Source: Fidelibacterota bacterium UBA1134 | GTDB lineage: Bacteria; Fidelibacterota; Marinisomatia; Marinisomatales; S15-B10 | Length of the DNA stretch: 36,329 nt | Direction: 5' to 3' | Assembly: GCA_002311975.1 (NCBI GenBank) | Contig: DCAL01000051.1 | Location: 8,699 to 45,027, forward strand | In this document: piece by piece, positions 1,572 through 32,516 of the stretch | How the letters are laid out: every line of letters begins with the position of its first letter | Numbering within the stretch: the first letter of the stretch is position 1 | The notes under the pieces: generated by a model | What the model saw: the letters and a program-made list of their open reading frames with translations, nothing else | What the model was told of the DNA's origin: nothing | Database searches by the model: none | Position numbers and translations under genes: made by a program

Positions 1572-1580
1572 TGTTCTTTT

Positions 1581-1895: not shown

Positions 1896-1933
1896 AATTT
1901 CAAAAGGCTTCTGAAAATAATGGACAATAATTC

Positions 1934-3049
1934 ATGAAAATAAGTCTGTCAAAACAATCGCTTCAAACAGCACTGGGAAATCTTGGTAAAGCCACACCAA
2001 CACGATCAACGATACCGATTCTTAATACCGTTCTGTTCACAGCAAAGGACACTCTTAGTCTGCGAACGACGGACCTTGAAATCAGTATTATTGCTCTGGT
2101 GGAATCAAAAATAAATGAAGAAGGCTCTGTCGCCATTCCCTATAGAACGTTGAGCGACACGGTAAATGCCATGCCAGACACAGAGCTCGTCATTGAAGCA
2201 GATGAGAAAAACAGGGTTGAAATCAAAACAGATTTTGGGAGTTATGACATTGCCGGGTCAAGTGCCGAAGAGTTTCCCACAACCCCCCAAGTAGACAACA
2301 AAAAGGAAATTCAGATCAAGGCGGACGTACTCAAGCGGCTGATAATGAAAACATCCTTTGCTGTCAGTACAGACGAACTGAAGCCGGCACTCATGGGGGC
2401 GCTGCTGGAAGTGGGGGAAAACAGTATCGTTTCGGTGGCCACCGATGGTCACCGGCTTGCCATCTGCTCCCGCAAGGACTATGAGTCTGCGGGGTATACC
2501 GGGGACGTTGTTGTGCCAAGAAAGTTTCTGCATCTTGTACTTCCTTACCTCGACGAACAGGACGAGGCAGTTCTCTGGATTGGAGAAAACCATCTCACCA
2601 TTTCCTTTGATGGGGTCACCGCATTCTCCAGAATAATAGATGAACGGTACCCAGACTATCGCTCTGTACTGCCACAGGAAAACGATAAGATTGTTAAAAT
2701 TGACAGAGAAAAAATGCTGGCGGCCGTAAAGAGGGTTTCCATATACTCTAACCGGGCCACGAGGCAAGTAACGTTGAAATTTGCTGGCGGGAAAAGCGTG
2801 ATTACAACAGAAGACTCAGAAAGCGCGTCGAGGGCAGAAGAAACAATAGATGTTGAATATGACGGAGAAGAGGTGTCAATTGGCTTCAATGCCCACTATC
2901 TCAGTGACATTCTCTCCCATCTGGACACAGAATCAGCCTACCTGCGACTCAACACCCCAATCAGCGCCACACTCATAAGTCCAGACTCCCAACAAGAACA
3001 AGAAGAAATTACCATGCTCCTTATGCCCATGCGCACAAGCGGGCAGTGA
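1934..3049 (+). CDS. dnaN: DNA polymerase III beta sliding clamp
   Basis: 371 aa. The N-terminus 'MKISLSKQSLQTALGNLGKATPTRSTIPILNTVLF' and the C-terminal 'MLLMPMR' are hallmark DnaN motifs, and length and domain order are typical. Confidence 0.97.
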   Translation: MKISLSKQSLQTALGNLGKATPTRSTIPILNTVLFTAKDTLSLRTTDLEISIIALVESKINEEGSVAIPYRTLSDTVNAMPDTELVIEADEKNRVEIKTDFGSYDIAGSSAEEFPTTPQVDNKKEIQIKADVLKRLIMKTSFAVSTDELKPALMGALLEVGENSIVSVATDGHRLAICSRKDYESAGYTGDVVVPRKFLHLVLPYLDEQDEAVLWIGENHLTISFDGVTAFSRIIDERYPDYRSVLPQENDKIVKIDREKMLAAVKRVSIYSNRATRQVTLKFAGGKSVITTEDSESASRAEETIDVEYDGEEVSIGFNAHYLSDILSHLDTESAYLRLNTPISATLISPDSQQEQEEITMLLMPMRTSGQ

Positions 3050-3083
3050 TGCTGGGCGAAACAGTTCGAACCGGATTGTTTTG

Positions 3084-3125
3084 GTGTAATTGTATCATTA
3101 CACCCACCGAAACAGCGGTTTTTTT
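3084..3125 (+). terminator. Possible weak terminator/attenuator after dnaN
   Basis: Perfect hairpin gtgtaat-N6-attacac (3084-3103), then a small hairpin accg-N6-cggt (3106-3119) running into a T7 tract (3119-3125). The T tract is not adjacent to the strong stem, so any termination is at most partial. Confidence 0.3.
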
Positions 3126-3153
3126 AAGGACAGTAAACACCACACTATAGGCC

Positions 3154-5438
<2,285 letters not shown>

Positions 5439-5447
5439 GAAGGCAGC

Positions 5448-7955
5448 ATGAGTGAAATAAGCAGAGATCTTTCAATCAAGCGCGACATCGTAGATGAGAT
5501 GAAGGAGAGTTATTTGAACTACTCCATGTCGGTGATTGTAGCGCGGGCGCTGCCGGACGTCAGGGACGGACTGAAGCCGGTCCACCGCCGAATACTCTAC
5601 GGGATGAATGATCTTGGGCTGCACTGGAACCGCGGTTACAAGAAAAGTGCGCGCATTGTTGGAGATGTTCTGGGAAAATATCATCCTCACGGTGACTCCT
5701 CTGTATATGATGCATTGGTGAGGATGGCACAGAACTTTGCCATGCGCTACCCACTGGTGGACGGACAGGGAAACTTCGGATCTGTTGATGGTGACAACGC
5801 GGCGGCGATGAGGTATACGGAGGCGCGCATGACGCGCATGGGCAGTGAAATGTTGCGCGACCTTGATAAAGAGACGGTGGGCTGGGCACCCAACTTTGAT
5901 GGTTCACTGGAAGAGCCGCAAATTCTCCCCACAGTTGTACCAAGCCTTTTAGTTAATGGGTCGGAGGGTATTGCTGTTGGTATGGCCACAAAAATTCCAC
6001 CCCACAACCTAACTGAAATCGTTGACGCACTTGTGGCGCTGATCGATGACCCCGAGATGGATGTGGAGAGCATAATGAAGATTGTACAAGGGCCGGACTT
6101 TCCTACGGGGGCGATGATAGAAGGGATAGACGGCATAAAGGAAGCATACAGTACGGGGCGCGGCAAAATTAGGGTGCGAGCGAGAGCTTTTATCGAAACA
6201 ATTAGGGGGGGCAAGTCCAACATCATTGTGAATGAGATTCCCTATCAGGTGAACAAGTCAAACCTGATAGCGAAGATTGCAGATCTAGTTCGGTCGAAAA
6301 AGATTGAAGGCATTGCGGACGTTCGTGATGAGTCAGATAAAGAGGGAATGCGGGTTGTTATTGAGACGAAACGTGATACCGTGCCGGAGGTAATTCTGAA
6401 CCAACTTTACGTGAACACGCAACTGAAAGAGACATTCGGTATCATTTTGCTGGCGCTCGTGGGCGGCGTGCCGCGAATAATGCCACTGAAGGAGATGTTG
6501 CGGCACTTTGTTGACCATCGCCACGAAGTTGTTGTGCGGCGCACCCAATATGATCTTAAGCGGGCAGAAGAAAAGGCGCACATATTAGAGGGGCTCAAGA
6601 TTGCCCTGGACAATATTGATGAAGTTATTATCCTTGTTCGCCAGAGCAAAGACCCCGCCCACGCCAAGGAGGGACTGATGAACGCATTTGACCTCTCTGA
6701 GAAACAGTCCCAAGCGATCCTTGACATGAGACTTCAGAAACTAACGGGCCTTGAGGTGAAAAAGATCGTTAAGGAGTATAAAGAAACAATTCAGATTATT
6801 GCGAAGCTGAAAGGACTTCTGGACAGTCGACCGCAGCGGATGGCAATCATTAAGAAAGAACTGGAAGAGGTTCGGCAGATGTATGGCGATGACAGGCGGA
6901 CGGAGATTATACCCGTGGGAAAGACTTTTTCTGTCGAAGACATGATTGCTGAAGAAGACGTTGTTATTACGATAACACATAACGGCTATATAAAAAGAAC
7001 CGCTGCTTCAACGTATCGCAGTCAGCGTCGCGGAGGAAGGGGGCTTCAGGGCGCCAAGGCAAAGGAAGAAGACTTTATTGAACACATGTTCATTGCCAAC
7101 ACGCACGACTATATGCTCTTTTTTACTGATAGGGGAAAGTGTTATTGGGCAAAAGTGCATGAAATACCACCGGGAGGCCGAGCAGCCCGTGGGCGTGCTG
7201 TCGTGAACTTGGTAGGAACAGAGCCGGGTGAAAAGGTTGAAGCGTATGTAAGTGTCAAGGAGTTTGATAAAGATCGGTTTATTGTGATGGTGACAGAGCA
7301 TGGAATTGTCAAAAAGACGCGCTTGTCTGCGTATGGAAACCCTCGAAAGGGAGGAATTTACGCCATCGACATCCGGGAAGGCGATAAACTGATTGATGCT
7401 AAAATCACCGATGGAGACAATGACATCCTCCTTGGAACATGGGAAGGGAAGTCGATACGTTTTTCGGAGCAGGACGTTCGGCCCACGGGGAGAAAAACGC
7501 GGGGCGTGATCGGTATCCGCAAGTCCGCCAAAAAGGACAGAGTTGTGGGCATGGTTGTGATCAGAAGGGAGGGAACGATACTGGTTGCCACAGAGAAGGG
7601 CTACGGCAAACGAACAGACATTATGCAGTATCGGGCTCAAAAGCGGGGCGGCATGGGCGTCATGGCTATGCGGACGACAAAAAAAGTTGGTAAAATGGTA
7701 GCCATTATGGAGGTGGTGGATTCAGACGGTCTGATGGTTATAACAGACCGCGGAGTGCTTATACGGCAACGGGTTTCAGAAATTCGGACGATCGGCCGCG
7801 TTACGCAAGGAGTGAAATTGATACGCTTGGATGAGAAAGACAAGATTTCAAGCATAACACGCGTGGTGGAGGAAGAAGTCAGCGGGGAGGAGGAGAAGGG
7901 AACATCCTCAGACAATGGGATGCCAGAGAAAGAGACAGAAGAGCCAATTGTGTGA
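5448..7955 (+). CDS. gyrA: DNA gyrase subunit A
   Basis: 835 aa. Motifs include '[12 protein letters not shown]', the QRDR '[20 protein letters not shown]' (wild-type Ser/Asp pattern) and the active-site '[10 protein letters not shown]'. It also has a beta-pinwheel CTD and an acidic tail. Confidence 0.99.
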
Positions 7956-12598: not shown

Positions 12599-15500
12599 AT
12601 GAACATCAACAAATGTATAATAAAAACGTGTACCGCAAGCTTTCTGGCCGCAGTTTTTTTAATAACAACCGTAGTGGCGGAAGATGCGCAGAAGAGCAAG
12701 CACTACCTGGATAAAGTTTCACTTTCCGGCCTGAAGTTTCGTTCCATCGGCCCCGCGGTCACGTCCGGGCGCATTTCTGCCTTTGCCGTGAACCCCGCCA
12801 ATCGGGCACAATATTTTGTTGCCTCAGCCTCCGGTGGCGTCTGGAAAACAGACAATAATGGCACCACCTATGAGCCCGTCTTTGATGGGGAGGGCTCCTA
12901 CTCTATCGGCTGCGTTACCATCGATCCAAACAATCCCCACGTGGTGTGGATTGGGACGGGAGAGAACAATAATCAGCGCAGCGTTGCCTATGGTGACGGT
13001 GTCTATAAATCGATGGATGGCGGTGAATCGTGGCAGAATATGGGGCTGAAAGAGTCTGAGCACATCGGCAAAATCATCGTAGACCCAAGGGACTCGGACG
13101 TAATTTATGTGGCCGCGATCGGCCCCTTGTGGAGTGAAGGGGGCGACCGTGGTGTATATAAGACGATTGACGGAGGCGCCAGCTGGGAAAGGGTGATGGA
13201 AGCGGATGAACATACGGGCGCGACCGATCTTGTTATGGACCCTAGAGACCCGGATGTTCTCTATGCGGCGGCTCACCAGCGGCGACGACATGTCTTTACG
13301 CTCGTTGGCGGTGGACCAGGATCTGCCATCTACAAATCGAGAGACGGTGGTGAAACCTGGGAGAAGCTTGACAAGGGATTGCCGTCAACCGTAATGGGTC
13401 GGATCGGTCTAGTTCTCTCGCCCGCAGATGCTGATGTTGTCTATGCCATCATTGAGGCGTCTGAAGGGGAGGAAGGGTTTTATCGTTCCTTGAACCGCGG
13501 GGCGTCGTGGAAGAAAATGAGTGATTATGTAACCAGCGGGAACTACTATCAAGAGATCGTGGCGGACCCAAAAGATGTGGATCGCGTCTACTCCATGAAC
13601 ACGTGGATGCACGTGACCGAAGATGGTGGTAAGACGTGGAACCGGGCGGGAGAGAAGAACAAGCATGTAGACAATCACGCCCTCTGGATCGACCCTGAAG
13701 ATACCGATTTTCTATTAGCGGGATGTGATGGCGGTATTTACGAAAGTTTTGACGGCAGCAAGACGTGGAATTTCAAAAGCAATCTTCCTGTGACACAGTT
13801 TTACAAAGTTTCAGTGGATGACGACAGGCCGTTTTATAATGTCTACGGCGGCACGCAGGACAACTATAGTCTCGGCGGACCGTCCAGAACCACCAGTTCA
13901 GCCGGGATCGTCAATGCTGACTGGTTCGTGACGCTTGGCGGCGATGGATTTGAAACACAGGTCGATCCTGATAATTCCGACATTGTCTATTCGCAGTGGC
14001 AGTACGGCAATCTCACCAGGTACGACAAAGCCAGCGGCGAGAAGCATGATATCAAGCCCCGGGCAAGAGAAGGGGAGGACGCCTATCGTTGGAACTGGGA
14101 CGCGCCGCTGCAGGTGGGTCAGCACTTTTCCGGGAGACTCTACTTCGCGGCCAACAAATTGTTTCGTAGTGATGACAGGGGAAACTCGTGGGACGTCATC
14201 AGCGACGATCTCACAAAGCAGATTGACCGCAACAAGCTTAAGGTGATGGGACGGACGTGGGGCGTGGACGCCATCGAAAAGAACCGAGCCACATCCAAAT
14301 ACGGCACCATTGTCGCTTTTCACGAGTCGCCTGTTGATGGCGACCTTCTATATGTAGGAACGGATGACGGCTTGATCCAGGTGACCGAAAACAGCGGCGG
14401 GAAGTGGAAAAAGACATCGCGCTTCAGCGGTGTACCGGAGAACACCTATGTCAATATGGTGCTGGCCTCACAGCATGAAAGATCGGTAGTGTACGCTGCG
14501 TTCAACAATCACAAGCGGGGCGACTTTAAACCATACATTCTCAAGAGTACAAATAACGGCAGGACGTGGAAATCTATTGCAGCCAACCTGCCGCAGCGAG
14601 GATCTGTCTACAGCATTGCCGAAGATCATGTGGACCCAGCTCTTCTTTTTGTTGGTACCGAGTTCGGCGTCTTCTTCACGGTGGATGGAGGAAAATATTG
14701 GAAACAGCTAAAAACGGGCGTACCCACCATAGCGGTGCGCGATCTGGCCATTCAGAAGCGGGAGAACGATCTTGTTCTCGGCACGTTCGGGCGAGGATTT
14801 TACATTCTGGATGACTATTCGCCCCTCAGAAATCTGAATGAGGAAAATCTTGCACAGGACGCAGCCATTTTTCCCGTTAAGGACGCTCTTATGTTCGTTG
14901 AAAGCAGTCGTATCGGGGGGAGTGGTAAAGGTTTTCAGGGGGATAACTATTTTCTGACGCCGAACCCTCCTGTGGCGGCGGTCTTCACCTACTATCTAAA
15001 AGAGAAAATAGAGATGCAAACTGAGAAGCGACGCCAAAAAGAAAAGGAGCTGCGTGATGCGGGAAAGGATGTTTCCTATCCAACGCTGGAAGAGTACAGA
15101 ACCGAGAAACAGGAAGAGAAGCCCAAACTGGTCTTCACCGTCCGGGACTCTCGAGGAAACATTATTCGCAGGCTTACGAACTCTCCATCGACAGGCATAA
15201 ACCGCATCACATGGGATTTCCTGTATGTGGCTCAGGGGCCCATAAGCGAAGAAGAGAGCAAATCAGGAGATGTTGAAGGCGGTGTACCGACAGCGCCCGG
15301 TGAATATACCGTCACCATGGAAAAGCGTGTTGAAGGCGAGATTATCGAACTGGCGGGACCGGTTTCATTTCAGACGGTTTCCTTCGGCGGCGTTACCCTT
15401 CCTACTGAGGACAGAGAAGAATTAGCGGCTTTCCAGCGACGGGTGGAAGCGTTGCAGGCAGCGGTCCGCTCGGCGAATCGCGAGATGGAGGACCTTAAAG

Positions 15501-21123: not shown

Positions 21124-21158
21124 GTACTGTGACGGCAAAGGTCTGTAAATTATCACTC

Positions 21159-21824
21159 ATGGGGAAGTTGCGCCAACAGACAGTTGCTCTCTATCTGGCG
21201 GGGACAGTTTTTCTCACCTTAGCTCCAACAGTTTCGCTGGCGGAAAAGGGTGCAGGGAAGCCTGTTGTGGCATTTATCGGTGCTGAGCTCGAGGGCATTC
21301 CTGAACCACACCACAAGAGACTGTTAGAGCGGCTTGATAATCTCTTCTCGGAACAGAAAGGGTATCTGTATATGGGGCCTGAGGCTGTGATCTCATCGGT
21401 TGATCATTCCATGGTGATGAAGGCCCTTGCCACAAGAGAGAAGGAACTGCTTCTTGCGTTGGCGGACACAATCGGCGCAGATTATCTTTTTATGGCAAAG
21501 CTAAAAAATCGCTCGGATGAGCCGGGCCGCGTCATGCTGGTAGGAGATGTGGCGCGCTTTGACTGTAGCAATGGACAGTTGTACAGGGTGGAAGTTCTCA
21601 AGTATGTAGAGAACGTGGGAGTGGAACTGGCCAGAATCAGACTTAATCTGGTTGATACCATCATGGAAGATACCAAAGCGTCAGCCAACACAATCTTGTG
21701 GGTCTTTGCAACTATTGCCTTTTTGGGCGCGCTGATGCTGTTGTTGCTGAAGACTGAAGTTAAGTTGGGCGGTGAGGGGACTGGCGGTGATGGTGGTACG
21801 GGCGATCCGACAATGATTCAGTGA
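21159..21824 (+). CDS. Hypothetical secreted protein with C-terminal transmembrane anchor and Gly/Asp-rich tail
   Basis: The signal peptide is 'MGKLRQQTVALYLAGTVFLTLAPTVSLA'. It is followed by a ~150-aa soluble domain, a TM helix 'ILWVFATIAFLGALMLLLL' and the tail 'GGEGTGGDGGTGDP'. I recognise no family. The start could also be the GTG at 21129. Confidence 0.5.
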   Translation: MGKLRQQTVALYLAGTVFLTLAPTVSLAEKGAGKPVVAFIGAELEGIPEPHHKRLLERLDNLFSEQKGYLYMGPEAVISSVDHSMVMKALATREKELLLALADTIGADYLFMAKLKNRSDEPGRVMLVGDVARFDCSNGQLYRVEVLKYVENVGVELARIRLNLVDTIMEDTKASANTILWVFATIAFLGALMLLLLKTEVKLGGEGTGGDGGTGDPTMIQ

Positions 21825-21859: not shown

Positions 21860-23470
21860 ATGAATGATAAGACCAGACAACCCGATAAACAGTCAGCCAG
21901 TGATCCGGGAACAAGACTCGGACGGCGGGACGTCTTAAAGGCTCTTGCGTCAATTCCGGCCATGGCCCTGTTTGTCTATGAACTGCTGAAAAAGAGAGCA
22001 TTTGATGGATTGAGAAAGCTGAACATCCTCTCCGAGCTAGGGGCGCCCATGGAGGCGCCGGCTGTTGTACCTCCCAGGGCATCGGGAGAACTGATTCGGC
22101 TCGGTATCATAGGCTATGGCGGCAGAGGGGAACACCTTACGAGGGGCGCCGGCTTCGCACACTCTGACTGGACAGAGAGAAAAGCGGCGGACGCCAAGAA
22201 GAACAGGCTCGACAAGGCTTTTGAAACATTCATGAAGCAGCAGGATTTGAATGTTGTCATAAACGGCGTCTGCGACCTTTTTGATGTGCGTGCTGAAAGG
22301 GTCATGGCTGCCTCCAAAAATGATCTCAGGCCAGGCGCGGGCACACGGACACTTACAGAGGCAAGACGGTACAGACACTACACAGAGCTCCTTAACAGCA
22401 AGGATATTGATGCTGTCATTGTGGCTACTCCGGATCACTGGCATTCGCGCATAACGATAGATGCTCTGGAAGCTGGCAAGCACGTCTACTGTGAGAAATG
22501 TATGACACGGACTATCGAGGAAGCATTTGCGGTCCGCAAAGCAGTAAAGAGGACAGGAAACGTGTTTCAGCTGGGGCATCAGAACAGGCAGGTAGAAACA
22601 TATGAGCAGGCGAGAAGAATTGTTGAGAGCGGGATACTGGGCCTTGTGACGCTTGTTGAGGTAACCACAAACCGCAATTCACCCGGCGGAGCATGGGTGT
22701 GGGGTATCCATCCGGACGGAAACCCAAAGACCATCGACTGGCAGACATTTCAGCAGCCGTCACCTAACAAGGTGCCGTTCAGCCTGGAGAGATTCTTCCG
22801 CTGGAGGTGCTGGTATGATTACGGCACGGGACTGTCGGGAGATCTGTTTTCCCACGAATTTGACGCTTTCAACCAGATAATGAACGTGGGCATTCCCAAG
22901 TATGCCGTTGCCAGCGGCGGTATTTACCGCTATAAGGACGGCCGCGACGTGCCGGATGTTTTTCAGGTGACATTCGAGTATCCCGACAAAAACCTGACAT
23001 TGATCTACAGTTCGACGCTGGCGTCAGGGAGAAACCGGGGAAATCTATTTATGGGACACGATGCAACCATGCAACTCGGCAATGAGGGGTCAGCTTCCAG
23101 CAGTCCGTTGAGCGTGACGGCTGATCATCAGTCAACAAGGTTCAGGCAGAAAATCGATAGTGGCGAGATCAGTACTTCACTGCCGCTTTTCGCCTACAGT
23201 CCTGGATCGAGGCAAATTGACGGAATTACATCCGCCAGCGCAAAATATTTTGCCAGCAAAGGGCTTGTATATACGTATCGTGGCGGCAAAAGGGTTGACC
23301 CCACGCATCTTCATATAAAGGACTGGTTAGATGGAATCCGCCACGGCACAACACCCAGATGTAACATTGATGTAGGTTTTGAAGAGGCTATTGCGTGCCA
23401 TATGGCCACCAAAGCTTTTCTGGAGGGCAGGCGGGTGGAGTGGGATTCAGTGAATGAAAAAGTGATTTAG
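21860..23470 (+). CDS. Gfo/Idh/MocA-family NAD(P)-dependent oxidoreductase with twin-arginine N-terminus (paralog A)
   Basis: 536 aa. The Tat motif is 'GRRDVLKALASIPAMALF'. The Rossmann start is 'IRLGIIGYGGRG', followed by 'DAVIVATPDHWH' and the EKP-type motif 'YCEKCM'. It is highly similar to the gene at 28993..30657. Confidence 0.9.
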   Translation: MNDKTRQPDKQSASDPGTRLGRRDVLKALASIPAMALFVYELLKKRAFDGLRKLNILSELGAPMEAPAVVPPRASGELIRLGIIGYGGRGEHLTRGAGFAHSDWTERKAADAKKNRLDKAFETFMKQQDLNVVINGVCDLFDVRAERVMAASKNDLRPGAGTRTLTEARRYRHYTELLNSKDIDAVIVATPDHWHSRITIDALEAGKHVYCEKCMTRTIEEAFAVRKAVKRTGNVFQLGHQNRQVETYEQARRIVESGILGLVTLVEVTTNRNSPGGAWVWGIHPDGNPKTIDWQTFQQPSPNKVPFSLERFFRWRCWYDYGTGLSGDLFSHEFDAFNQIMNVGIPKYAVASGGIYRYKDGRDVPDVFQVTFEYPDKNLTLIYSSTLASGRNRGNLFMGHDATMQLGNEGSASSSPLSVTADHQSTRFRQKIDSGEISTSLPLFAYSPGSRQIDGITSASAKYFASKGLVYTYRGGKRVDPTHLHIKDWLDGIRHGTTPRCNIDVGFEEAIACHMATKAFLEGRRVEWDSVNEKVI

Positions 23471-23780: not shown

Positions 23781-24731
23781 CTAACCGAGTTCAGTCCGAA
23801 CCCGCTCTAATAGTGTCTTCGTCGCCTTAATTCCGTCCATTTCACTGAACCCGTCCCCCTCGTATTCCACGCCTACATAGCTGCTGTAGCCGGCATCGAG
23901 GACAATATTCATCATCTGAACGTAGTCAGTGTGAATTTCATTGCCGTCTGAATCGAAGTCGTGGCTCTTGGCACTGACGGCTTTGGCATAGGGCATGAGT
24001 TCGGAGACCCCCTTATAGCGGTCGTATTCATCAAAACAGTCCCCTTCCCACAATCCGGGCCCTGACTTCTGAACACAAAAATTTCCAAAGTCAGGCAGCG
24101 TACCGCATCCTGGATGATCTACTTTCTTAATCACATTAGAGAGCCACTGTCCATTGCTGGAGAGACCACCGTGGTTCTCTACAATAACCTTGATGTTCTT
24201 CCGATCTCCAAATTCTGTCAGGCGGCGCAGCCCGTCCGCTGCTAGTTTCATCTGTTCCTCATAGGTTCCGTCGCTTCGGGCGTTGACCCTTATGGAGTGG
24301 CAGCCGAGAAACTTCGCCGCCGTCACCCATTTGTAGTGATTCTCGATGGCCTGTTTGCGGGCTGATTCATCTGGATCCCCGAGGTTTCCTTCAGAATCGC
24401 ACATGATGAGCAAACTCTTGACGCCTTCGCCGTCAGCGCGGGAAACCATCTCTTTCAGGTAGTCTTTGTCTTGCGCCTTTTCAAAGAAGAAAGTATTTAC
24501 ATATTCCACCGCATCAATGCCAAATTCTCCTCTGGCGATCTTAGCGAAATCGAGATGATTGATCTCGCCGCTCCATAAAGCCCTATGAAGAGACCACTCA
24601 GCCAAGGATATTTTGAACAATGGTTCTTCTACCCGGCTCGATAATCTCGTGCCCGGTAATCCCATGACAGTCAAACCTCCGGCAAGTGTGACGGACTGTT
24701 TCAGGAATGCCCGCCTGTCTATTATTTCCAT
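23781..24731 (-). CDS. Xylose-isomerase-like TIM-barrel protein (sugar phosphate isomerase/epimerase family, AP_endonuc_2) with Tat signal
   Basis: 316 aa. The Tat motif is '[16 protein letters not shown]'. Metal-site-like motifs are 'VIVENHGG', 'LPDFGNF' and 'YVGVEYEG'. GGAGGA lies upstream of the start. Confidence 0.88.
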
Positions 24732-24763: not shown

Positions 24764-25822
24764 TTGATTTGTCCCGTGCTTAGAACACTCTTTATTTTCA
24801 CCTCTTTCTGGTTTCTGATGTCATCCTGTGGCGAGTCGAAACGCGAAATTGTGCTTAACGGAAGAACTATGGGCACCACCTATCAGATAAAGTTATTATC
24901 ACAGCAAGGCTTGAGAGCTGTGGGAGTTCTGAAAACGGAGATCGACTCCGTCCTTGCCCAGGTAAACAGGCAGATGTCCCTCTACCAGTACGGCAGCGAG
25001 ATCAACGCCTTCAACCGCTCTTTATCCACAGAAGCGTTTGCGGTTTCTGAAGAATTCGCGTTTGTCCTTGGCAGGGCCCTCTACTGGTCAGCCGTGACAG
25101 ACGGGGCCTTTGATGTGACTATATTCCCACTTCTTTTTCTCTGGGGATTCGGGCCGGGCCAGGAGACAGACCCTCTTACCGTGTTTCCGGACAAGACCAC
25201 CGTTCAGAACAAATTGGTACATGTGGGGTACGGCAAGCTGAAGGTAGTGCAACAGACGCTGATTAAGAACGATCCCCATGTAAGGATTGATCTTAACGCC
25301 ATCGCCAAAGGTTTTGGCGTAGACGCTGTTTACGACTATCTTCAGTCTCAGGACGTTGCTCATATGATGGTGGAAATTGGCGGCGAAGTGCGCGTTAGAG
25401 GGAAGAATCAGAACGGCCATTCCTGGACCATTGCTATCGAGTGCCCCCATCTGTCCGCTGATTCGGAGAGGACTTTTGATTGGATCTGTGAATTGAAAGG
25501 AGGTGCTGTGGCAACGTCAGGGGATTACAGGAATTTCTTTGAAGTGGACGGCGAGGTTTTCTCACACGAGATCGACCCAACAAGTGGCTATCCTGCCAAA
25601 ACTAAAGTGGCCTCCGCCACCGTCACTGCTCCTAATTGTACTGATGCTGACGCGCTGGCCACTGCCCTCATGGTGATGGATGTTAACGAAGGGATGAAGC
25701 TCGTAGAATCACTTCCGGAGGTGGAGGCGTTCCTGCTGGTGAGGGAGTCCGCCAGTCAGTTTACATCCCGCCGCAGCTCCGGCATGACCATTAGGGCCGT
25801 TGGAAAGGACTCAGATAGGTAG
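24764..25822 (+). CDS. apbE: ApbE-family FAD:protein FMN transferase, lipoprotein type
   Basis: 352 aa. Motifs: '[10 protein letters not shown]', '[14 protein letters not shown]', '[17 protein letters not shown]', '[15 protein letters not shown]', '[11 protein letters not shown]', '[14 protein letters not shown]', '[11 protein letters not shown]', '[13 protein letters not shown]'. A TTG start gives the signal plus lipobox 'FWFLMSSC'. Confidence 0.92.
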
Positions 25823-25824
25823 CG

Positions 25825-26457
25825 CTATTCCAGCGCTTTCACGTAGATATTCCGGAAGGAAACGGTGGTGTCCCAGTCGTGGTTCTGGAGACCGATGTAA
25901 CCTTCGCCGGCGAAGTCCCTGATTTTCCCTCGCGGTTCAGCTTCCCAGTCCACGACCTTTTCGCCGTTCAGTTCCACTTGAATCCGCTTGCCTTGAAAGA
26001 TGATCTTGTAGTGGTTCCATTCCCCGCCGGGCTTTGACGCGTTTTTGCTGGCCGGTTCCGCATCGTAAACGGCAGCGGTCCTGTGGAGGGCTTCCTCTGC
26101 CGCATCATTGATCTGCACCTCAAACGAGTGATAGATGTATTCATTGCTTGATGGCATCTCGGGAACCCGCAGGAAAATGCCCGAATTGGCCTCAGGATGG
26201 GAACTCCTGAAATCGAGCTCCAAGATGAAAGCCCCGTACTTTCTTGCACTATACCAGAACAGGCCCATGCCTCCGTGGGAGGTGATGATGCCTGTCTCCC
26301 TATCTAGATCGAAGTAGCCGGGCCCGTAGTGATTCCATCCATGTTTGGAATAGACACCTTCGTGCTCCGAGAGTATTCGCTCAAATCCTTCCTTTTCAGG
26401 CGCAGATGCACACGAAGTCATGAACAACAGAACGATAAGTGATAGCCAACGCAGCAT
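25825..26457 (-). CDS. DUF1080 (3-keto-disaccharide hydrolase family) lipoprotein
   Basis: 210 aa. The lipobox is 'LLFMTSC'. Family motifs are 'YGAFILELDFR...ANSGIFLR', 'FEVQINDA', 'GEWNHYKIIFQGKRIQVELNGEKV' and 'GYIGLQNHDWDTTVSFRNIYVK'. AAGGAG lies upstream. Confidence 0.88.
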   Translation of the reverse strand: MLRWLSLIVLLFMTSCASAPEKEGFERILSEHEGVYSKHGWNHYGPGYFDLDRETGIITSHGGMGLFWYSARKYGAFILELDFRSSHPEANSGIFLRVPEMPSSNEYIYHSFEVQINDAAEEALHRTAAVYDAEPASKNASKPGGEWNHYKIIFQGKRIQVELNGEKVVDWEAEPRGKIRDFAGEGYIGLQNHDWDTTVSFRNIYVKALE

Positions 26458-26472
26458 AGTCAGAGTACTCCT

Positions 26473-27723
26473 TTATGATTCTTTCGGATTCCATTCCCCC
26501 TTCGCCACCGCTGGGATGAACGTCTCAAGGCTTGGAGGCGGGAATAGGATGGTCTTGTCTTGTTCGGCGCTCATGTAGGCGGTCATGAGGAGTTCCGTTA
26601 CGTTCAAGCCGTCGCTGAAGTTTTCTTCCGGTCTCTTTCCCGCCAGAAACGACTGCACCATGTGACGATTCTCAGCCGTATAGCCATAGGCCTCCGTCTC
26701 GTTGCTCACCACAGGCATTTCGCCCGACTCAGCGTTCTGTTTCTCCACCAGATCCTCGCTCTGAGACCCCGTCACATTGCGGCTGAAGAAGACGCGAAGA
26801 TCAGAATCGAGTGTATTGACAAACATGGAATACTCCGGGCCGAACAGTTCCAGACTGAGCCTCAGTCCCGCTCCTACAAAGCACCACGATGTGGTGGTCT
26901 CCACAACAATCTTTTCATCATCTTGATTGACATATTCGATGAGTGATCTGGCAAAGTCTTCTGAAGGTTTCTTGGTGTAGTCCGTCTTGCCGCCGCTGTT
27001 GTCTGAAAGGATTTTCGCATACTTGGGCCGCTGCCATTTCAGGCAGGCGGCGTAAGCGTTCACGCTGACCGGGGTCAGCACATCCCGTCTAGCGCCGGGG
27101 GGCGTCAGCATGAATCGGGCCTCTTCTACCGAGTGACACATCATATCATTCAGCACGCCGCCGCCCTGCAGTTCCCCCTCCCAGAACCACGGCATGTGCG
27201 GCCCGCTGTGCTCTTCCGCGGCGCGGGCGAGGTAGGGCGGTCCGGTGAGGGCAGCGCCCCGGGCCCAGACGATCTCTTTGCCGCGCGTCACCGATGGTGC
27301 AAAAATCTGATTCTCTAAATAGCCGTCCAGAAGATTGGAACTCTGAGCCAATTCCAGCATCTTGCGGGCCTCTGCCACATTACGTCCGAGCGGTTTTTCA
27401 CAGGTAACACCAATCAGTTCACCTTTACCTGTTTCAATGGCATGTACGATCTCCTCCATCACTTCAATACGGGTAAAGTTGGGGGCACAAATCCACAATG
27501 CATGAATATTGTTATCGGCAACCATATCGGTAATTGAATCATAGGCTTTGGCATCTCCGACACCAATTTCTCTGGCAAGTATTGCTGCTTCTTCCGCTGT
27601 ATCACGCGACTTTGAAACGACTCCTAGTACATCTGCATCTCTAACACCTATCAAGGACTTAATATGAAATCTGGCGATAAATCCACCACCGATAAAACCT
27701 ATGCCTAATCGTTTTTCCCCCAT
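26473..27723 (-). CDS. Gfo/Idh/MocA-family oxidoreductase, cytoplasmic (no signal peptide)
   Basis: 416 aa. The Rossmann start is 'LGIGFIGGGFIARFH', followed by 'ALWICAPNFTR' and the 'CEKPLG' EKP motif. The C-terminal alpha/beta domain is typical. Confidence 0.9.
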   Translation of the reverse strand: MGEKRLGIGFIGGGFIARFHIKSLIGVRDADVLGVVSKSRDTAEEAAILAREIGVGDAKAYDSITDMVADNNIHALWICAPNFTRIEVMEEIVHAIETGKGELIGVTCEKPLGRNVAEARKMLELAQSSNLLDGYLENQIFAPSVTRGKEIVWARGAALTGPPYLARAAEEHSGPHMPWFWEGELQGGGVLNDMMCHSVEEARFMLTPPGARRDVLTPVSVNAYAACLKWQRPKYAKILSDNSGGKTDYTKKPSEDFARSLIEYVNQDDEKIVVETTTSWCFVGAGLRLSLELFGPEYSMFVNTLDSDLRVFFSRNVTGSQSEDLVEKQNAESGEMPVVSNETEAYGYTAENRHMVQSFLAGKRPEENFSDGLNVTELLMTAYMSAEQDKTILFPPPSLETFIPAVAKGEWNPKES

Positions 27724-27729
27724 TAGATG

Positions 27730-28944
27730 TTATACCGATTGCAACTCTGCTGCAGTTGCTTTATGATCATCCTTAAAAAACAAAAGAAAGACAAAAGCCA
27801 TTACGGTACATAGCATCGCTGGTATTAAAAAGAATTTCCACCAGATTGTTGAACCATCTGCTAGTTTGAAAGTATCCCATATATACCCAGTAAATAATGT
27901 CCCTAAGTAATTACCGACACCTAAGGTGAAGAAGGTAAGCATAGCTTGGGCCGAAGCACGCATATCATCACTGGCCTTCATATTTACATAAATCTGAGAC
28001 GTAACGAAGAAAAAGGCGTAACCAAAACCATGTAGTGTAAGTGATCCAATAATAACGGATAAATTAGGTACCATAAACAAAAAGTATCTGATTGGCCAAG
28101 CCAAAATTCCAATCACCATTGTAAGCCTAACACCCAATTTCTGTATGGATACATGTAATAAGAAAAGCAACACCACAACTTCCGCGATCTGTGCAACTGT
28201 TTTTATAGCCGTTAGCCAAGCTTCTTCTGCGCCCATATCTAACAGAAATGGGGCTGTAGGTATATAATAAAATTGCAGTTCTGTTGTTACGGCAAATGAA
28301 GCCATCATAAAGATCAAAAAATTCCTATCTTTAAGCAACGAGAGCGCTTCAAGAAATGCAAGTGGATTATTTTGGCTGGCTACTGGCGGTGTTTTAGGTA
28401 AGGTGAAGCAAAACATGCCCATAATAATTGATGTAACTGCAGCAAACATTAATAAGTCGCTTCCGCCAGTCCAATTTTCGGTGTGCCATTGACTGCGCAT
28501 GAAAGTGACCACCCAGCCGACAGAAATCCACCCAATCGTGCCCCACATACGTATCTTGCCAAACTCTACTTCAGCATTCTCAAGATTCCGAAAACAAATA
28601 GAGTTTGTCAGCGCAAGGGTGGGGGCATAAAAAAGGCAATAAATAAACATCCAGGTCCACATTGGAACAAATTCTTGCTGGACAGCAGTAAAATAAAGAA
28701 GAACCCCACCCAAGAGGTGGGCGACTCCCAAGAATAATTGTGTCGGCAGTAATCGATCAGCGATCTGACCACCAATGAAAGGTGCAATTATACAGCCCAG
28801 CCACAAACAACCATATATAGCCGCGATCTCGCTACCGGCAAACCCCAGCTTATCTAAATGTGCGCCAAGGGCAGTAGTCCATGATCCCCAAATGGCATAC
28901 TGCAAAAACATCATGATACCAAAACGTGTTTTTCTATCACCCAT
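27730..28944 (-). CDS. MFS transporter, nucleoside:H+ symporter (NHS)-like subfamily
   Basis: 404 aa, about 12 TM segments. The N-terminus 'RFGIMMFLQYAIWGSWTTALGAHL' is typical of Nuc_H_symport-type MFS permeases. It lies 6 bp upstream of the next gene in the operon. Confidence 0.82.
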   Translation of the reverse strand: MGDRKTRFGIMMFLQYAIWGSWTTALGAHLDKLGFAGSEIAAIYGCLWLGCIIAPFIGGQIADRLLPTQLFLGVAHLLGGVLLYFTAVQQEFVPMWTWMFIYCLFYAPTLALTNSICFRNLENAEVEFGKIRMWGTIGWISVGWVVTFMRSQWHTENWTGGSDLLMFAAVTSIIMGMFCFTLPKTPPVASQNNPLAFLEALSLLKDRNFLIFMMASFAVTTELQFYYIPTAPFLLDMGAEEAWLTAIKTVAQIAEVVVLLFLLHVSIQKLGVRLTMVIGILAWPIRYFLFMVPNLSVIIGSLTLHGFGYAFFFVTSQIYVNMKASDDMRASAQAMLTFFTLGVGNYLGTLFTGYIWDTFKLADGSTIWWKFFLIPAMLCTVMAFVFLLFFKDDHKATAAELQSV

Positions 28945-28992: not shown

Positions 28993-30657
28993 CTAAACGA
29001 TTTTCCTTTTGACTGGGTCCCATTCCACTCTACGGCCCTCCAAATACGATTGGGTAGCCATGTGGCAGGCTACAGCTTCCTCGAATCCTTCTTCAATATT
29101 ACATTTTGGCTCTCCGCCGTATCGAATGCAATCCAGCCAGTCTTTCACATGAAGATGGGTGGGATCGACCCGTTTCCCTCCGCGATAGGTATAGACGAGA
29201 CCTTTCTGTGCAAAGTATTTTGCTGTGGCTGAAGTAATGCCGTCGATATCCTTTGACCCCGGCGAATAGCTGAACAGCGGCAGAGCGGTGTTGATGATAC
29301 CTTCCTCGATCTTACTCTTGTAGCGTGTGGATTGAGGATCGGGCGTAACGGTAAGACCACCGCCCACTTCCATGGTAGCGTCATGTCCCATGAACACCTT
29401 GCCGCGGTGACGGCTGTTTGCCAGAGAGGCGCTGTAAACAAGCGTCAGCCCCCTATCGGGATACTCGAAGATGGCCTGAAATGTATCTGGCACGTCCCTG
29501 TCTTCCTTGATTAAGTCAGGGAATCTCTCTTTGGTGTAGTAATAGATGCCGCCCGAGGCGGAGGCACTTTTTGGAATGCCAAGATCCATGATTTGATTTA
29601 CGGCGTCAAAGTCGTGAGATAGAAGATCGCCTGAGAGTCCTGTTCCATAGTCGTACCAGCAACGCCAGCGAAAATACCGCTCCAAGTTGAAGGGGTGCCT
29701 GTTAGGGGCCGGCCCCTGCCACATGTCCCAATCAAGACTTTTCGGTGTGGCATACTGTTCCTTAGACGCATAGGTCTGCCACACATCTTCGATGGAGTTC
29801 CACTGTATGGGATAGACCCAGGCTCCGCCGGGGCTGTTGCGGTTGGTGGTAACTTCAACCAGAGTCACCTGTCCCAGGATATCATTTTCGATCATTTCGC
29901 GCGCTTTTTCATGGCTGGATGAAGCCCTGCTGTGATGTCCCAGTTGAAACTTTAAATCACTTTTCTTTACCGCATCATAAACATCAATAGCCTCGCTCAT
30001 TGTACGAGTCATGCATTTCTCGCAATAGATATGTTTGCCGGCTCGCACAGCATCAAGGGTTATTTTTGCGTGCCAGTGGTCCGGTGTGGCGATTATTACA
30101 GCGTCAATGTCATCACTGGCAAGGAGATCCTGATAGTTACGGTACCCTTTGGCAGGCTCGGACTGGACCACTCCCCCCGGTCTTACGTCATTAGTCGATG
30201 TGGCAATTCCCTGCTCTCTTCTGGTATCAAAAACATCGCACACACCGGCCAGCTCAAGGTTTAGGTCTTCCTGACTCAGGTAGGTTTCCAGCCGCTTATC
30301 GAGTCTGTTCGCGTTAACTGCCTCTCTGGCTTTCGCCACCCACTCGGGACTGGCAAATCCTGCCCCCTTTGCAACTGCGGCACCTCGCCAGCCGTAGCCG
30401 ATGACCCCTAAGCGTATCAGTTCGTTTTTCTTTCGTGATTTCAGGACAGCGGGAGCTTTCTTGCTCTGGCCCAGTTCAGACATAACCTGAAGCCTTCTCA
30501 TACTGTCCAGAGCGCTCTTCTTTATGTAGTTGTAAAGAAAGAGGGCTAAAGCTGGTATGGTAGCTAAGCCTTTTATAATGTCTCTTCGACTGAAGCTTGG
30601 TTCATCTTGGGAATCAGGACTAACGGTATTTAATTTTCGCTCGGATGGATCTGTCAT
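28993..30657 (-). CDS. Gfo/Idh/MocA-family oxidoreductase with twin-arginine N-terminus (paralog B)
   Basis: 554 aa. Motifs: 'FSRRDIIKGLATIPALALF', 'IRLGVIGYGWRG', 'DAVIIATPDHWH', 'YCEKCM'. The C-terminal ~90 aa are nearly identical at protein level to paralog A, while synonymous sites differ. Confidence 0.9.
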   Translation of the reverse strand: MTDPSERKLNTVSPDSQDEPSFSRRDIIKGLATIPALALFLYNYIKKSALDSMRRLQVMSELGQSKKAPAVLKSRKKNELIRLGVIGYGWRGAAVAKGAGFASPEWVAKAREAVNANRLDKRLETYLSQEDLNLELAGVCDVFDTRREQGIATSTNDVRPGGVVQSEPAKGYRNYQDLLASDDIDAVIIATPDHWHAKITLDAVRAGKHIYCEKCMTRTMSEAIDVYDAVKKSDLKFQLGHHSRASSSHEKAREMIENDILGQVTLVEVTTNRNSPGGAWVYPIQWNSIEDVWQTYASKEQYATPKSLDWDMWQGPAPNRHPFNLERYFRWRCWYDYGTGLSGDLLSHDFDAVNQIMDLGIPKSASASGGIYYYTKERFPDLIKEDRDVPDTFQAIFEYPDRGLTLVYSASLANSRHRGKVFMGHDATMEVGGGLTVTPDPQSTRYKSKIEEGIINTALPLFSYSPGSKDIDGITSATAKYFAQKGLVYTYRGGKRVDPTHLHVKDWLDCIRYGGEPKCNIEEGFEEAVACHMATQSYLEGRRVEWDPVKRKIV

Positions 30658-30678: not shown

Positions 30679-31176
30679 CTAACGGCGTAATCTTTGAAGA
30701 AATCTGTCCAATCCTGTAATATGCCCTGTTGGAAATTTGGCCAGAACAAACAGTGCACATGCCTCCACCAGATTTTTGTCAATTAACAGATAACTTCCTT
30801 CAGTAGGTTTGGAGTATTCCAATCCTACCAAGGGCGGATGAAAAAGATAATAGAGAAGAAGAAGAAGCGCTCCGGCGAGGCTGCCCCAGCGTGAAAACAG
30901 TCCGCACATCAAGCTTAGCCCGATGGCGGTAAGTCCCCACATATTGAGGTGATCCACAATGTTCAGTGTGCTGGGATTGGAGACGAGTGAGTTGGCGATA
31001 CCGGAAAGGGCCCATTTGGTATCTAACAGAAAGGCCGCTGAAGACCAGTGCGGATTGGAAAGCTTGGCTACACCCTCATACAGAAAGTGCCACCCGATAA
31101 GGACCCGGAGCAATGACAATCCGATTAGTTGACTGTTGCTATATTCTGAGGAGAGCGGTTCTGACTTGCTGCTCAT
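30679..31176 (-). CDS. DoxX-family integral membrane protein
   Basis: 'LLRVLIGWHFLYEGVAKL' followed by 3-4 TM helices fits DoxX (RxxxGxxFxxxGxxK). I chose the start at the ATG at 31176 (165 aa). The track ORF extension to 31413 runs through the divergent promoter region and looks spurious. It is the first gene of the minus-strand operon, 21 bp before paralog B. Confidence 0.7.
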   Translation of the reverse strand: MSSKSEPLSSEYSNSQLIGLSLLRVLIGWHFLYEGVAKLSNPHWSSAAFLLDTKWALSGIANSLVSNPSTLNIVDHLNMWGLTAIGLSLMCGLFSRWGSLAGALLLLLYYLFHPPLVGLEYSKPTEGSYLLIDKNLVEACALFVLAKFPTGHITGLDRFLQRLRR

Positions 31177-31225
31177 AATAAGCCCCTGTTTTATGACGTA
31201 AGAGATCGAAGGAAAACTGAATGAG

Positions 31226-31254
31226 AGTGTAGTTAAGATTATCAATAAATGCAA
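31226..31254 (-). promoter_or_regulatory. Candidate sigma70-type promoter for the doxX operon
   Basis: The minus strand reads TTGCAT (31254-31249), a 17-bp spacer, then TACACT (31231-31226), about 50 nt upstream of the doxX ATG. Pattern match only. Confidence 0.25.
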
Positions 31255-31370
31255 ACAACAAAAGTATTTGAGCCAACACATTTTGGACACTATTTCATCC
31301 ATAAAGCACGGACTAAAGTGTAATTTGTCTGGCGCATTAATATTGCACTCACACAACGGATAAGGATCAA

Positions 31371-32516
31371 ATGAAGCATCGAATCGTATTAATTGGCGCA
31401 GGAAGCGCAACATTCGGTCTCAGCACTAATGGTGATATCCTGAAGAATAACGCCTTGGAAGGGAGCACCATCGTTCTGCACGATATAGATGCCAAAGCGT
31501 TGAGTTGTGTGGCGGAAATCTCGCAGCAGTATGTATAAGAAAAAAGTCTCCCCTATAAGGTAAAATCTACTCTATCAAGAGAAGAGGCGCTTCAAGGCGC
31601 AGACTTTGTAATTATCTCCATTGAAGCGGGTGATAGGTTTGCCCTCTGGGAACAGGACTGGAAGATCCTCCTGGAATACGGTTTCAAGCAGATCTATGGT
31701 GAAAACTGCGGGCCCGGTGGGATCTTTCACGCGTTGCGCATAATTCTGCCCATTCTGGAGATCTGTGAGGATATCCAGGCCCCCGCTGCCCGCAAGCTTT
31801 TGTATTCAACTTCAGTAACCCCATGACCAAGATCTGTCACACAGTACCGTGAGTCAGGGAAGGACGCGTATCCAGAGATCCTTGAGAAGGCTCCTGACTA
31901 CTTTCCCACGGCAGAGGCTTCCATGGGCGTCGTGGAGGAGAGGTCCCTATTCCTGGAAATCGTGAGCTTGTACAGGGTGCTGCCGATAACGACAGACAGC
32001 CATTTTGGAGAATACATCGGCTGGGCGTGGGATGTGGCCGATCATGACGGGACCAAGGAGTTCTATAGCAGATACAGGAAGTACATGCTTTTCAACAAAG
32101 GTCTCCCTGCTGAACGTCTTCAGCGGGGAACGGAAGAAGAGGAATTCTGGCGCGTGGTTCACATTATAGCTGGGATTGTTGCTGATTCAGGGCATGAAGA
32201 ATTAGCGGTGAACATCCCAAATGACGACTTTATTGAGGCCCTGCCGCGGAATCAGATCGTTGAAGTGCCGGCGGTGATAGACCGGAACGGCACTAAGGGC
32301 ATCAGGCTCGATTCTTACCCGAGGGTATTTTCAGGTCTGCTCCAGAGCGAGGAGCCCCTCCATGACCGGCTTACCGAAACAATCCTCACAAGATCGAAAG
32401 AGGCGGTTTTGCAGACACTGCTGTTGGACCCGGTGGTGGACAGGGTTCAGCTGGCAGAAGACCTGCTAAACAGGGTGCTCGATTTACAGACGCCGTATCT
32501 TGATTGTCTGCAATAA
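31371..32516 (+). pseudogene. Glycoside hydrolase family 4 (NAD+/Mn2+-dependent alpha-glucosidase/galactosidase-like) pseudogene
   Basis: The N-terminus 'MKHRIVLIGAGSATFG...GSTIVLHDIDAKAL' runs into an in-frame TAA at 31536-31538. Homology resumes in the same frame ('EEALQGADFVIISIEAG...GENCGPGGIFHALR'). It then shifts frame near the C5 run at 31780-31784 ('CPQAFVFNFSNPMTKICH', TGA at 31850-31852). It shifts back for the C-terminal half ('DAYPEIL...LPITTDSHFGEY...LAVNIPNDDFIEALPRNQIVEVPAVIDRNG...LLLDP'). The total span is only 382 codons against ~440-480, so internal sequence is also missing. Confidence 0.85.

Follow-up and report, generated by a model that had tools for sequence, protein, structure and literature searches.

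We have analysed a 36,329 nucleotide stretch of DNA from Fidelibacterota bacterium UBA1134 (contig DCAL01000051.1, positions 8,699 to 45,027; hereafter the window), which encodes two paralogous dehydrogenases of the Gfo/Idh/MocA family, each with a twin-arginine translocation (Tat) signal, and an ApbE flavin transferase whose gene, apbE, sits between them. Each paralog carries, in a loop inserted within its C-terminal domain, a seven-residue sequence resembling the site at which ApbE attaches flavin mononucleotide (FMN) to its protein substrates. ApbE-dependent flavinylation of S460 in paralog A and of T478 in paralog B, with a redox-relay role for the attached flavin, is the reading we consider likely, and the flavinylation step itself is well supported by comparison of related sequences and loci. 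A fuller scheme, in which electrons would pass from enzyme-bound NADH (reduced nicotinamide adenine dinucleotide, NAD) to FMN and on to DoxX and quinone, would define a new respiratory type, a membrane-anchored periplasmic glycoside:quinone oxidoreductase; we advance it tentatively, with a confidence that falls a little short of even. The features on which the argument rests are the following, numbered from the first nucleotide of the window.

21860-23470, plus strand: paralog A, Tat-signal Gfo/Idh/MocA dehydrogenase of 536 amino acids (aa), Pfam PF01408 and PF22725.
21923-21928, plus strand: twin-arginine pair R22-R23 of paralog A, both residues invariant in two family alignments.
23219-23239, plus strand: DGITSAS (D454-S460 of paralog A, by translation), proposed ApbE motif; S460, at 23237-23239, is the proposed FMN-phosphoester site.
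24764-25822, plus strand: ApbE, flavin adenine dinucleotide (FAD):protein FMN transferase with a lipoprotein-like N-terminus (...FLMSSC); PF02424, E 2e-82; NCBIfam NF007774, E 6e-63.
28993-30657, minus strand: paralog B, Tat-signal Gfo/Idh/MocA dehydrogenase of 554 aa, Pfam Gfo N- and C-terminal domains, directly 3' of the DoxX gene.
29224-29244, minus strand: DGITSAT (D472-T478 of paralog B, by translation), proposed ApbE motif; T478, at 29224-29226, is the proposed FMN-phosphoester site.
30679-31176, minus strand: DoxX-family four-helix membrane protein of 165 aa, read from an internal Met of the open reading frame (ORF) 30679-31413, the real start of which is probably 31176; PF07681, 33.9 bits against a cutoff of 23.6.

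Direct translation agrees with the first-pass annotation of this DNA, made from the sequence alone, in placing DGITSAS on the plus and DGITSAT on the minus strand and in the distance of 76 residues separating the last residue of the motif from the C-terminus in paralogs A and B alike. Substrates of ApbE carry the motif D-x-x-[S/T]-G-A-[S/T], of which the last residue is modified (PMC12052999), and both paralogs fit this pattern at six of seven positions, with Ser standing where Gly is expected. The paralogs are 58% identical to each other, and PF01408 and PF22725 score above their cutoffs in both. The segment bearing the motif had been described as lying beyond the ordinary Gfo fold; it is instead an insertion within the C-terminal domain, the conserved Gfo helices resuming after it, with residues 465-502 of paralog A aligning to residues 306-342 of DgpA. 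Both proteins are predicted from their sequences to be extracytosolic, as had been proposed, their twin-arginine signals (RRDVLK in A, RRDIIK in B) being invariant in the clade. In paralog A, a hydrophobic helix and then a stretch rich in Lys come after R22-R23, with no obvious Ala-x-Ala cleavage site. Because residues 22-59 form one long helix without an obvious signal-peptidase site, this N-terminus is probably an uncleaved Tat membrane anchor, which would hold the enzyme at the periplasmic face of the inner membrane.

The motif is retained in close and distant relatives of the two paralogs. D-x-[IV]-T-S-A-[TS] is present in 117 of the 120 nearest relatives in the databases (identity of 59% or more). 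The relatives closest to the Gfo proteins of the window come from Marinimicrobia (Neomarinimicrobiota/Fidelibacterota) metagenome bins. When wider relatives were collected by searching 1.84 billion cluster representatives and aligned, the same loop was found down to ∼38% identity, two distant members carrying DAVSGAT, the canonical ApbE motif. A scan of loci, taking one genome per species and a 12-sequence alignment as query, returned 80 loci, of which L001-L054 hold members of the orthologous clade (the main clade) and L055-L080 other Gfo proteins without the insertion. Main-clade carriers belong to at least five phyla, with Neomarinimicrobiota, Gemmatimonadota, many Bacteroidota, Aminicenantes and one gammaproteobacterium represented and Prevotella sp. 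10(H), Odoribacter laneus, Algoriphagus alkaliphilus and Carboxylicivirga sediminis as cultured examples. The family exceeds 7,700 clusters at 90% identity (E <= 1e-20 against the clade profile), and its database names are merely 'Gfo/Idh/MocA family oxidoreductase' or 'predicted dehydrogenase'.

Every one of the 52 homology-defined relatives whose C-terminus is complete (37-62% identity) keeps the first Asp and the last Thr/Ser, the consensus being D-x-[IVLFY]-[STA]-[STG]-[AP]-[TS], and Thr or Ser occupies the final position in 136 of the 137 distinct segments that have a residue there; the terminal hydroxyl residue, the invariance of which had earlier been suggested as a check, is thus retained. 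Across 139 distinct segments, the first position is Asp in 124, position -3 relative to the site is Thr in 104, Ser in 21 and Ala in 8, position -2 is Ser in 116, Thr in 10 and Gly in 5, position -1 is Ala in 121 and Pro in 12, and the site itself is Thr in 118 and Ser in 18. The motif forms a low-entropy island, residues 447-452 being among the most variable and D454 and residues 458-460 among the least variable; the set used for this entropy comparison was picked with a motif filter, and the count in the 52 relatives is therefore taken as the unbiased statement.

A search seeded with a divergent relative returned a continuum of loop variants, including one subclade which mixes SGAT/TGAT and SSAT in close relatives. 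Gly is found at -2 (DAVSGAT or DAITGAT) in P0419, P0425, P0370, P0136, P0138 and L021, and Ser (DAVSSAT) in P0420, P0452 and P0456. When the motif Gly is mutated to Ala, flavinylation is reduced but still takes place, and replacing the Asp with Ala makes little difference (PMC12052999). In Escherichia coli RsxD, which belongs to the ApbE-flavinylated RnfD family, the sequence is DGISQAT, with Gln at -2, indicating that the natural -2 position need not be Gly. We take the flavinylated residue of RnfD to be Thr-187. As a separate observation, the ortholog at L051 (9974-11584, in an apbE-doxX-gfo operon) contains a second, fully canonical motif, DFSTGAS, at residues 360-366 in another insertion, a site confined to L051 and P0129-like proteins (EFSTGTS in P0129).

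A motif this short could resemble an ApbE site by accident, with the apbE gene of the window a merely coincidental neighbour. Among the ∼10.9 k residues of the window, 0.84 matches to the loose pattern D..[ST].A[ST] would be expected, so that a single window-wide match is not significant, and significance therefore rests on conservation and gene context. The canonical-looking DEHTGAT at 13205-13225 (plus strand), which the first-pass annotation had pointed out and which is indeed present, lies in an unrelated 1094-aa BNR/sortilin-like protein and is the only strict ApbE-motif match in the window. Accidental resemblance does not account for a motif kept across phyla down to 37% identity, for the adjacency of apbE to the Gfo family in 11 distinct loci with differing gene orders, described below, or for the Poisson p of 5e-6 to 1e-3 obtained with the main clade alone. 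On these comparative data a chance origin is very unlikely, and we conclude that the motif is not a chance match.

A first AlphaFold2 model, built from a shallow alignment of 65 sequences, had a predicted local distance difference test (pLDDT) score of 69 and left residues 441-478 all unplaced; it was replaced by a second model of paralog A, based on a more diverse alignment of 50 sequences (pLDDT 85, predicted template modelling score 0.83). In the second model pLDDT falls below 50 internally only at residues 410-412 and 450-459 (SRQIDGITSA), the latter being without secondary structure and situated between a strand (442-446) and a helix (459-466) at the start of which S460 lies. Location of the motif in a low-confidence internal loop of an otherwise confident model suggests that the loop is flexible and exposed, which is the situation the flavinylation proposal had anticipated. 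Since the sequence is conserved and could not be placed by the predictor, it may be a recognition motif or a segment which becomes ordered only around a cofactor or partner.

Gene context was compared between main-clade and other Gfo loci. apbE lies within 10 kb of gfo in 5 of 54 main-clade loci and in none of 26 other Gfo loci. In the 0.78 Mb of main-clade loci, these 5 genes compare with 0.2-0.8 expected (Poisson p 5e-6 to 1e-3) at an apbE density of 0.3-1 per Mb that was assumed, not measured. A Fisher comparison calculated by hand (6 of ∼58 main-clade loci against 0 of 26 other Gfo loci, p ∼0.17) is not significant, and the genome-density estimate and operon structures are therefore relied upon. 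Contiguous apbE-doxX-gfo arrangements, confirmed with Pfam, occur on one strand at L005 in Gemmatimonadota (L004 being similar) and also at L051 in a Bacteroidota metagenome-assembled genome. In Prevotella sp. 10(H) (L007, NZ_JOMI01000009.1, 8079-17329) one strand carries a cytoplasmic gfo, doxX, the motif-bearing gfo, a BT2158-like Tat-gfo, DUF1080, TIM-barrel, apbE and tatC genes, and the motif is absent from the BT2158-like Gfo2. It seems that this operon supplies both a flavin transferase and a Tat component of its own. The arrangement at L009, from Marinimicrobia, resembles that of the window.

Linkage extends to divergent members of the family. apbE lies directly 3' of gfo in P0142, P0145, P0340 and P0360 (gaps of 76, 42 and 24 bp, and a 4-bp overlap in P0360), the remaining neighbours of these pairs being unrelated genes, and a partial, convergent apbE is found at P0144. 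With the window included there are 11 distinct apbE-adjacent loci of differing architecture in several lineages, in which the insertion-bearing Gfo is the only common element; it is also the only protein with a motif-like site in these apbE operons and the sole partner in the two-gene cassettes. The adjacent ApbE proteins carry lipoprotein or Tat signals, those beside the divergent relatives being twin-arginine signals (e.g. SRRYFLGG, GRRRFLKG). Twin-arginine ApbE genes directly 3' of a divergent gfo are located as follows.

L084, 9570-10673: twin-arginine ApbE.
L091, 1172-2194: twin-arginine ApbE.
L092, 9522-10559: twin-arginine ApbE.
L093, 9536-10576: twin-arginine ApbE.

In the Gfo partners of these four proteins the loop reads [RK]-A-x-T-x-[DE]-T or E-A-I-T-S-A-T. 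Because apbE adjoins relatives with divergent loops, it appears to track the loop and its hydroxyl residue rather than the exact seven-residue motif. The link between motif and apbE raised previously thus stands in part: apbE adjoins the family in 11 loci, and the motif is not confined to apbE-adjacent members. The stricter proposition that the motif occurs only where apbE is adjacent was rejected, the motif being present with or without a nearby apbE and apbE being found also beside divergent-loop relatives. At L095 (9466-10938), the gene for P0419, a canonical SGAT protein, lies in a SusC/SusD locus and is followed by a FAD-dependent oxidoreductase (PF12831) instead of DoxX/ApbE. Combined, conservation, apbE linkage and the position of the loop in the model support the original suggestion that this sequence is an ApbE flavinylation site, as far as comparative and modelling evidence can predict one.

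Several observations weigh against this conclusion. Position -2 is Ser rather than Gly in most members, ∼9% of segments have Pro instead of Ala at -1 and ∼6% have Ala instead of Ser/Thr at -3, and mutations at the Gly and Ala positions lower flavinylation of a model substrate (PMC12052999). Only 6 of ∼58 main-clade loci have apbE within 10 kb, ∼90% being without it. Three long contigs with the standard operon contain no apbE within 10 kb, nor do the loci of the canonical-SGAT relatives P0136, P0138 and P0419, of which P0136 and P0419 also have no doxX nearby, and apbE adjoins relatives without the Asp and Ala ([RK]-A-x-T-x-[DE]-T, AQPSS). The insertion, of 67-68 residues, contains no recognisable flavin-binding domain and matches no Pfam family at E up to 10, and no flavoprotein is found among the solved-structure Gfo/Idh/MocA matches. 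No DoxX gene accompanies paralog A. Finally, the site residue starts a helix, and its conservation could partly reflect N-capping.

Much of this evidence is shared by the main rival explanation, that the loop is an unmodified structural or functional element, such as a substrate lid, an oligomer or DoxX contact or a Thr/Ser helix N-cap, and that ApbE has another role or client. The hydroxyl residue is placed at the start of helix 459-466 and is kept in divergent relatives without the Asp and Ala, neighbouring Y463, F464, G468 and L469 are as conserved as the motif itself, and most main-clade loci have no apbE nearby. ApbE could then supply periplasmic FMN as a FAD pyrophosphatase, an activity attributed to some ApbE/Ftp proteins (PMC4767422), or could flavinylate NQR/RNF subunits encoded elsewhere. 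An unmodified loop leaves unexplained the translationally coupled two-gene gfo-apbE cassettes, the insertion of apbE into doxX-gfo operons in three separate lineages and the Ser/Gly interchange which regenerates canonical SGAT; moreover, an enzyme exported by Tat would receive a non-covalent cofactor before leaving the cytoplasm, and no periplasmic transferase would be needed. We judge the unmodified loop improbable and retain ApbE-dependent flavinylation of S460/T478 as the likely reading.

DoxX is a regular companion of the main clade. In 52 of 54 main-clade loci, as opposed to 0 of 26 other Gfo loci, the gene right next to gfo encodes a DoxX homolog; it usually lies immediately 5' of gfo (overlapping or separated by at most 20 bp) and is 3' in four loci. 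Of the two main-clade loci lacking it, one (L047) is truncated by the end of its contig. DoxX likewise accompanies P0360 and P0138. Unbiased clustering of the neighbours in the 54 main-clade loci yielded DoxX in 52, DUF1080 in 22, TIM-barrel proteins in 11 + 6, major facilitator superfamily (MFS) transporters in 8 and ApbE in 5. A recurrent operon, doxX-gfo-MFS-cytoplasmic gfo-TIM-DUF1080, matches the minus-strand genes of the window from 31176 to 25825. The very tight doxX-gfo pairing, mostly overlapping or within 20 bp, suggests a physical complex of Gfo and DoxX; a literature search, which did not cover subscription journals, found no description of a two-gene doxX-gfo module. The accompanying genes in the window are as follows.

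27730-28944, minus strand: MFS transporter of the sugar/nucleoside:H+ symporter type in the same operon (PF03825, E 2e-91), recurring 3' of doxX-gfo in L087-L090.
26473-27723, minus strand: cytoplasmic Gfo/Idh/MocA oxidoreductase without a signal peptide (Pfam), a conserved operon member.
25825-26457, minus strand: 3-keto-disaccharide hydrolase (DUF1080) with a lipoprotein signal (PF06439, E 3e-38), with a homolog in 22 of 54 main-clade loci.
23781-24731, minus strand: Tat-signal xylose-isomerase-like TIM-barrel protein (PF01261, E 2e-25); TIM-barrel genes recur in related operons.

By analogy with the 3-keto-glycoside pathway (PMC8121099), the product of 26473-27723 is probably a 3-keto-sugar reductase. 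Paralog A is located downstream of SusC/SusD-like genes and of a membrane protein of no known family, with no adjacent DoxX gene. Directly 5' of paralog A, in the place that DoxX takes relative to paralog B, 21129-21824 (plus strand) encodes a protein of 231 aa that has a tail rich in Gly and is predicted to be hydrophobic near both termini; it has no Pfam or NCBIfam match and no homolog among the 80 related loci.

Identity of the enzyme was approached through structure and profile comparisons. Foldseek matched the model with probability 1.00 to many Gfo/Idh/MocA structures, the top matches being NAD-dependent sugar dehydrogenases, several of which act at C3; structural neighbours include DgpA1, the Alistipes glucoside-3-dehydrogenase AL3, levoglucosan dehydrogenase, RgNanOx and glucose-fructose oxidoreductase (GFOR). 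The glycines of the Rossmann fold (G85-x-G87-x-x-G90), D139, E212-K213 and H332 are invariant or nearly so, and on this sequence evidence an active NAD enzyme is likely. A further candidate element, CEKC (C211/C214) as a metal site, was rejected, the cysteines not being conserved and relatives having LEKP or VEKP. In searches with the full-length paralogs no Pfam match to FMN_bind, DUF2271, DUF3570 or NqrB/RnfD was obtained. The nearest NCBIfam family is NF058561, the BT_2158 glycoside 3-dehydrogenase family (118.3 and 118.6 bits, with partial coverage of the model); as its cutoff is 750 bits, the paralogs are not members. Both are placed in a large, uncharacterised clade of Tat-exported NAD-binding Gfo sugar dehydrogenases, most likely glycoside 3-dehydrogenases.

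The scheme we propose would operate as follows. A flexible loop inserted in the Gfo C-terminal domain would present D-x-[IV]-[ST]-[SG]-A-[TS] and, after export, lipoprotein ApbE (24764-25822) would move FMN from FAD onto S460 of paralog A and T478 of paralog B. The tethered FMN could then take a hydride from captive NADH, which would be tightly bound and unable to leave the enzyme, and pass electrons to the quinone pool via the co-encoded DoxX (30679-31176). With the DUF1080 hydrolase, the TIM-barrel protein, the MFS importer and the cytoplasmic Gfo reductase, these components would constitute a respiration-linked 3-keto-glycoside pathway. The covalent FMN, the uncleaved anchor, the glycoside substrate and the path from NADH through FMN to DoxX and quinone are what we infer from the comparisons above.

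Flavinylation of the loop could also serve a different end. The flavin might deliver electrons to a soluble acceptor (a cytochrome, O2 or another redox protein) or support the reverse reaction, reduction of a 3-keto sugar, with DoxX acting only as a dock or regulator. The clade I gfo-apbE cassettes P0142, P0145 and P0340 have no DoxX nearby, paralog A is without its own DoxX gene, and the DoxX/D-family protein BtdS also acts to sequester a regulator (PMC10084136); furthermore, the authors of the AL3/BT2158 work weighed cytochromes or small hydride acceptors for re-oxidation (bioRxiv 10.1101/2024.03.25.586180). The pairing of doxX with gfo in 52 of 54 loci, an N-terminal anchor that would put the enzyme at the membrane, and the quinone linkage of DoxD and of DoxX-fused type II NADH dehydrogenase (NDH-2) argue instead for the quinone route. 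We regard a role of this other kind as unlikely, and continue with the path through DoxX to quinone as the tentative scheme.

Comparison with established ApbE substrates reveals both likeness and difference. NqrC/RnfG FMN_bind and NqrB/RnfD proteins share with the Gfo family a seven-residue motif running from Asp to Thr/Ser, an extracytosolic site and apbE as the maturation gene. They differ in fold, the present proteins being NAD-binding Gfo enzymes without FMN_bind, NqrB/RnfD, DUF2271 or DUF3570 domains and having mostly Ser at -2. Flavodoxin_4/FMN_red proteins (PMC11334425) offer a parallel in that an existing fold has gained the motif on an inserted or unstructured segment and was recognised by apbE co-localisation and the motif. 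However, those folds already bind flavin non-covalently whereas the Gfo fold binds NAD(P), and they occur mostly in Firmicutes, the Gfo family being found mainly in Bacteroidota, Marinimicrobia, Gemmatimonadota and relatives. Gfo proteins are not listed among ApbE substrates by Méheust et al. 2021 or the 2024 follow-up, the main texts of which contain no Gfo/MocA, and the literature search, with the coverage stated above, found nothing relevant that connects ApbE with either Gfo or DoxX, DoxX with Gfo, or flavinylation with 3-keto-glycosides.

On the side of carbohydrate oxidation, the Bacteroides pathway is the closest counterpart. There the Tat-exported Gfo protein BT2158 oxidises glycosides at C3 and DUF1080 is a 3-keto-disaccharide hydrolase (PMC8121099). 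BT2158, Alistipes AL3 (NF058561; PDB 8TDF/8TDH) and the glucose-fructose oxidoreductase of Zymomonas are likewise Tat-exported periplasmic Gfo enzymes with tightly bound NAD(P), and their genes are accompanied by those for DUF1080 and TIM-barrel proteins belonging to the 3-keto-glycoside pathway (PMC8121099). Unlike the scheme proposed here, their NAD is thought to be recycled by reduction of a second sugar, and neither doxX nor apbE is among the genes described for the BT2156-BT2160 cluster (PMC8121099). For BT2158/AL3 this recycling is attributed to 3-keto-glucose reduction, with re-oxidation by other proteins left open (bioRxiv 10.1101/2024.03.25.586180). FAD-dependent glucoside 3-dehydrogenases of the LacABC type, which have a cytochrome c subunit, and ThuAB also link periplasmic 3-keto-glycoside formation to respiration (PMC8121099); they are unlike the Gfo proteins in having an unrelated flavoenzyme fold and an exit via cytochrome c, with no NAD, DoxX or ApbE.

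Precedent for a DoxX-type module in quinone-linked electron transfer comes from two sources. DoxX-fused NDH-2 follows the same logic from NADH to flavin to quinone with a DoxX module, and appears in apbE/flavinylation-associated clusters (PMC8238504, supplement). In contrast to the proposed Gfo scheme, with bound periplasmic NAD, covalent FMN and a separate doxX gene, it has non-covalent FAD, a Pyr_redox_2 fold, a location on the cytoplasmic side, free NADH as substrate and a fused DoxX. The thiosulfate:quinone oxidoreductase DoxD/DoxA and the hydroxyhydroquinone dehydrogenase BtdLS similarly combine a small DoxX/DoxD membrane subunit with a catalytic subunit in a quinone-related dehydrogenase bound to the membrane, but their catalytic partners and substrates differ and no link to flavinylation or apbE is reported (PMC10084136).

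The NAD(P) of Gfo-type periplasmic dehydrogenases cannot exchange, and its re-oxidation is an acknowledged gap in the 3-keto-glycoside pathway of gut Bacteroides (PMC8121099; bioRxiv 10.1101/2024.03.25.586180). If the proposed scheme is correct, electrons of bound NADH would have a direct route to the quinone pool and periplasmic glycoside oxidation would feed respiration, a second-sugar sink being unnecessary. ApbE would gain a substrate of a new fold, an enzyme that uses NAD and is not a flavin-binding domain, and a definite function would be assigned to DoxX, a family still poorly understood. Glycoside:quinone oxidoreductases of this type would be widespread among Bacteroidota, Marinimicrobia, Gemmatimonadota and related groups, and would explain some of the 'orphan apbE' genomes that remain, 4% of the set in Méheust et al. 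2021.

Elsewhere in the window, inspection of ORF translations by eye indicates housekeeping genes at the left end (264-7955, plus strand), encoding a SurA-like chaperone, dnaN, gyrB and gyrA. An ORF of 197 aa at 31923-32516 (plus strand), for which the sole match is to the C-terminal domain of family 4 glycoside hydrolases (PF11975), may be a truncated gene, a pseudogene or the product of a mis-called start.

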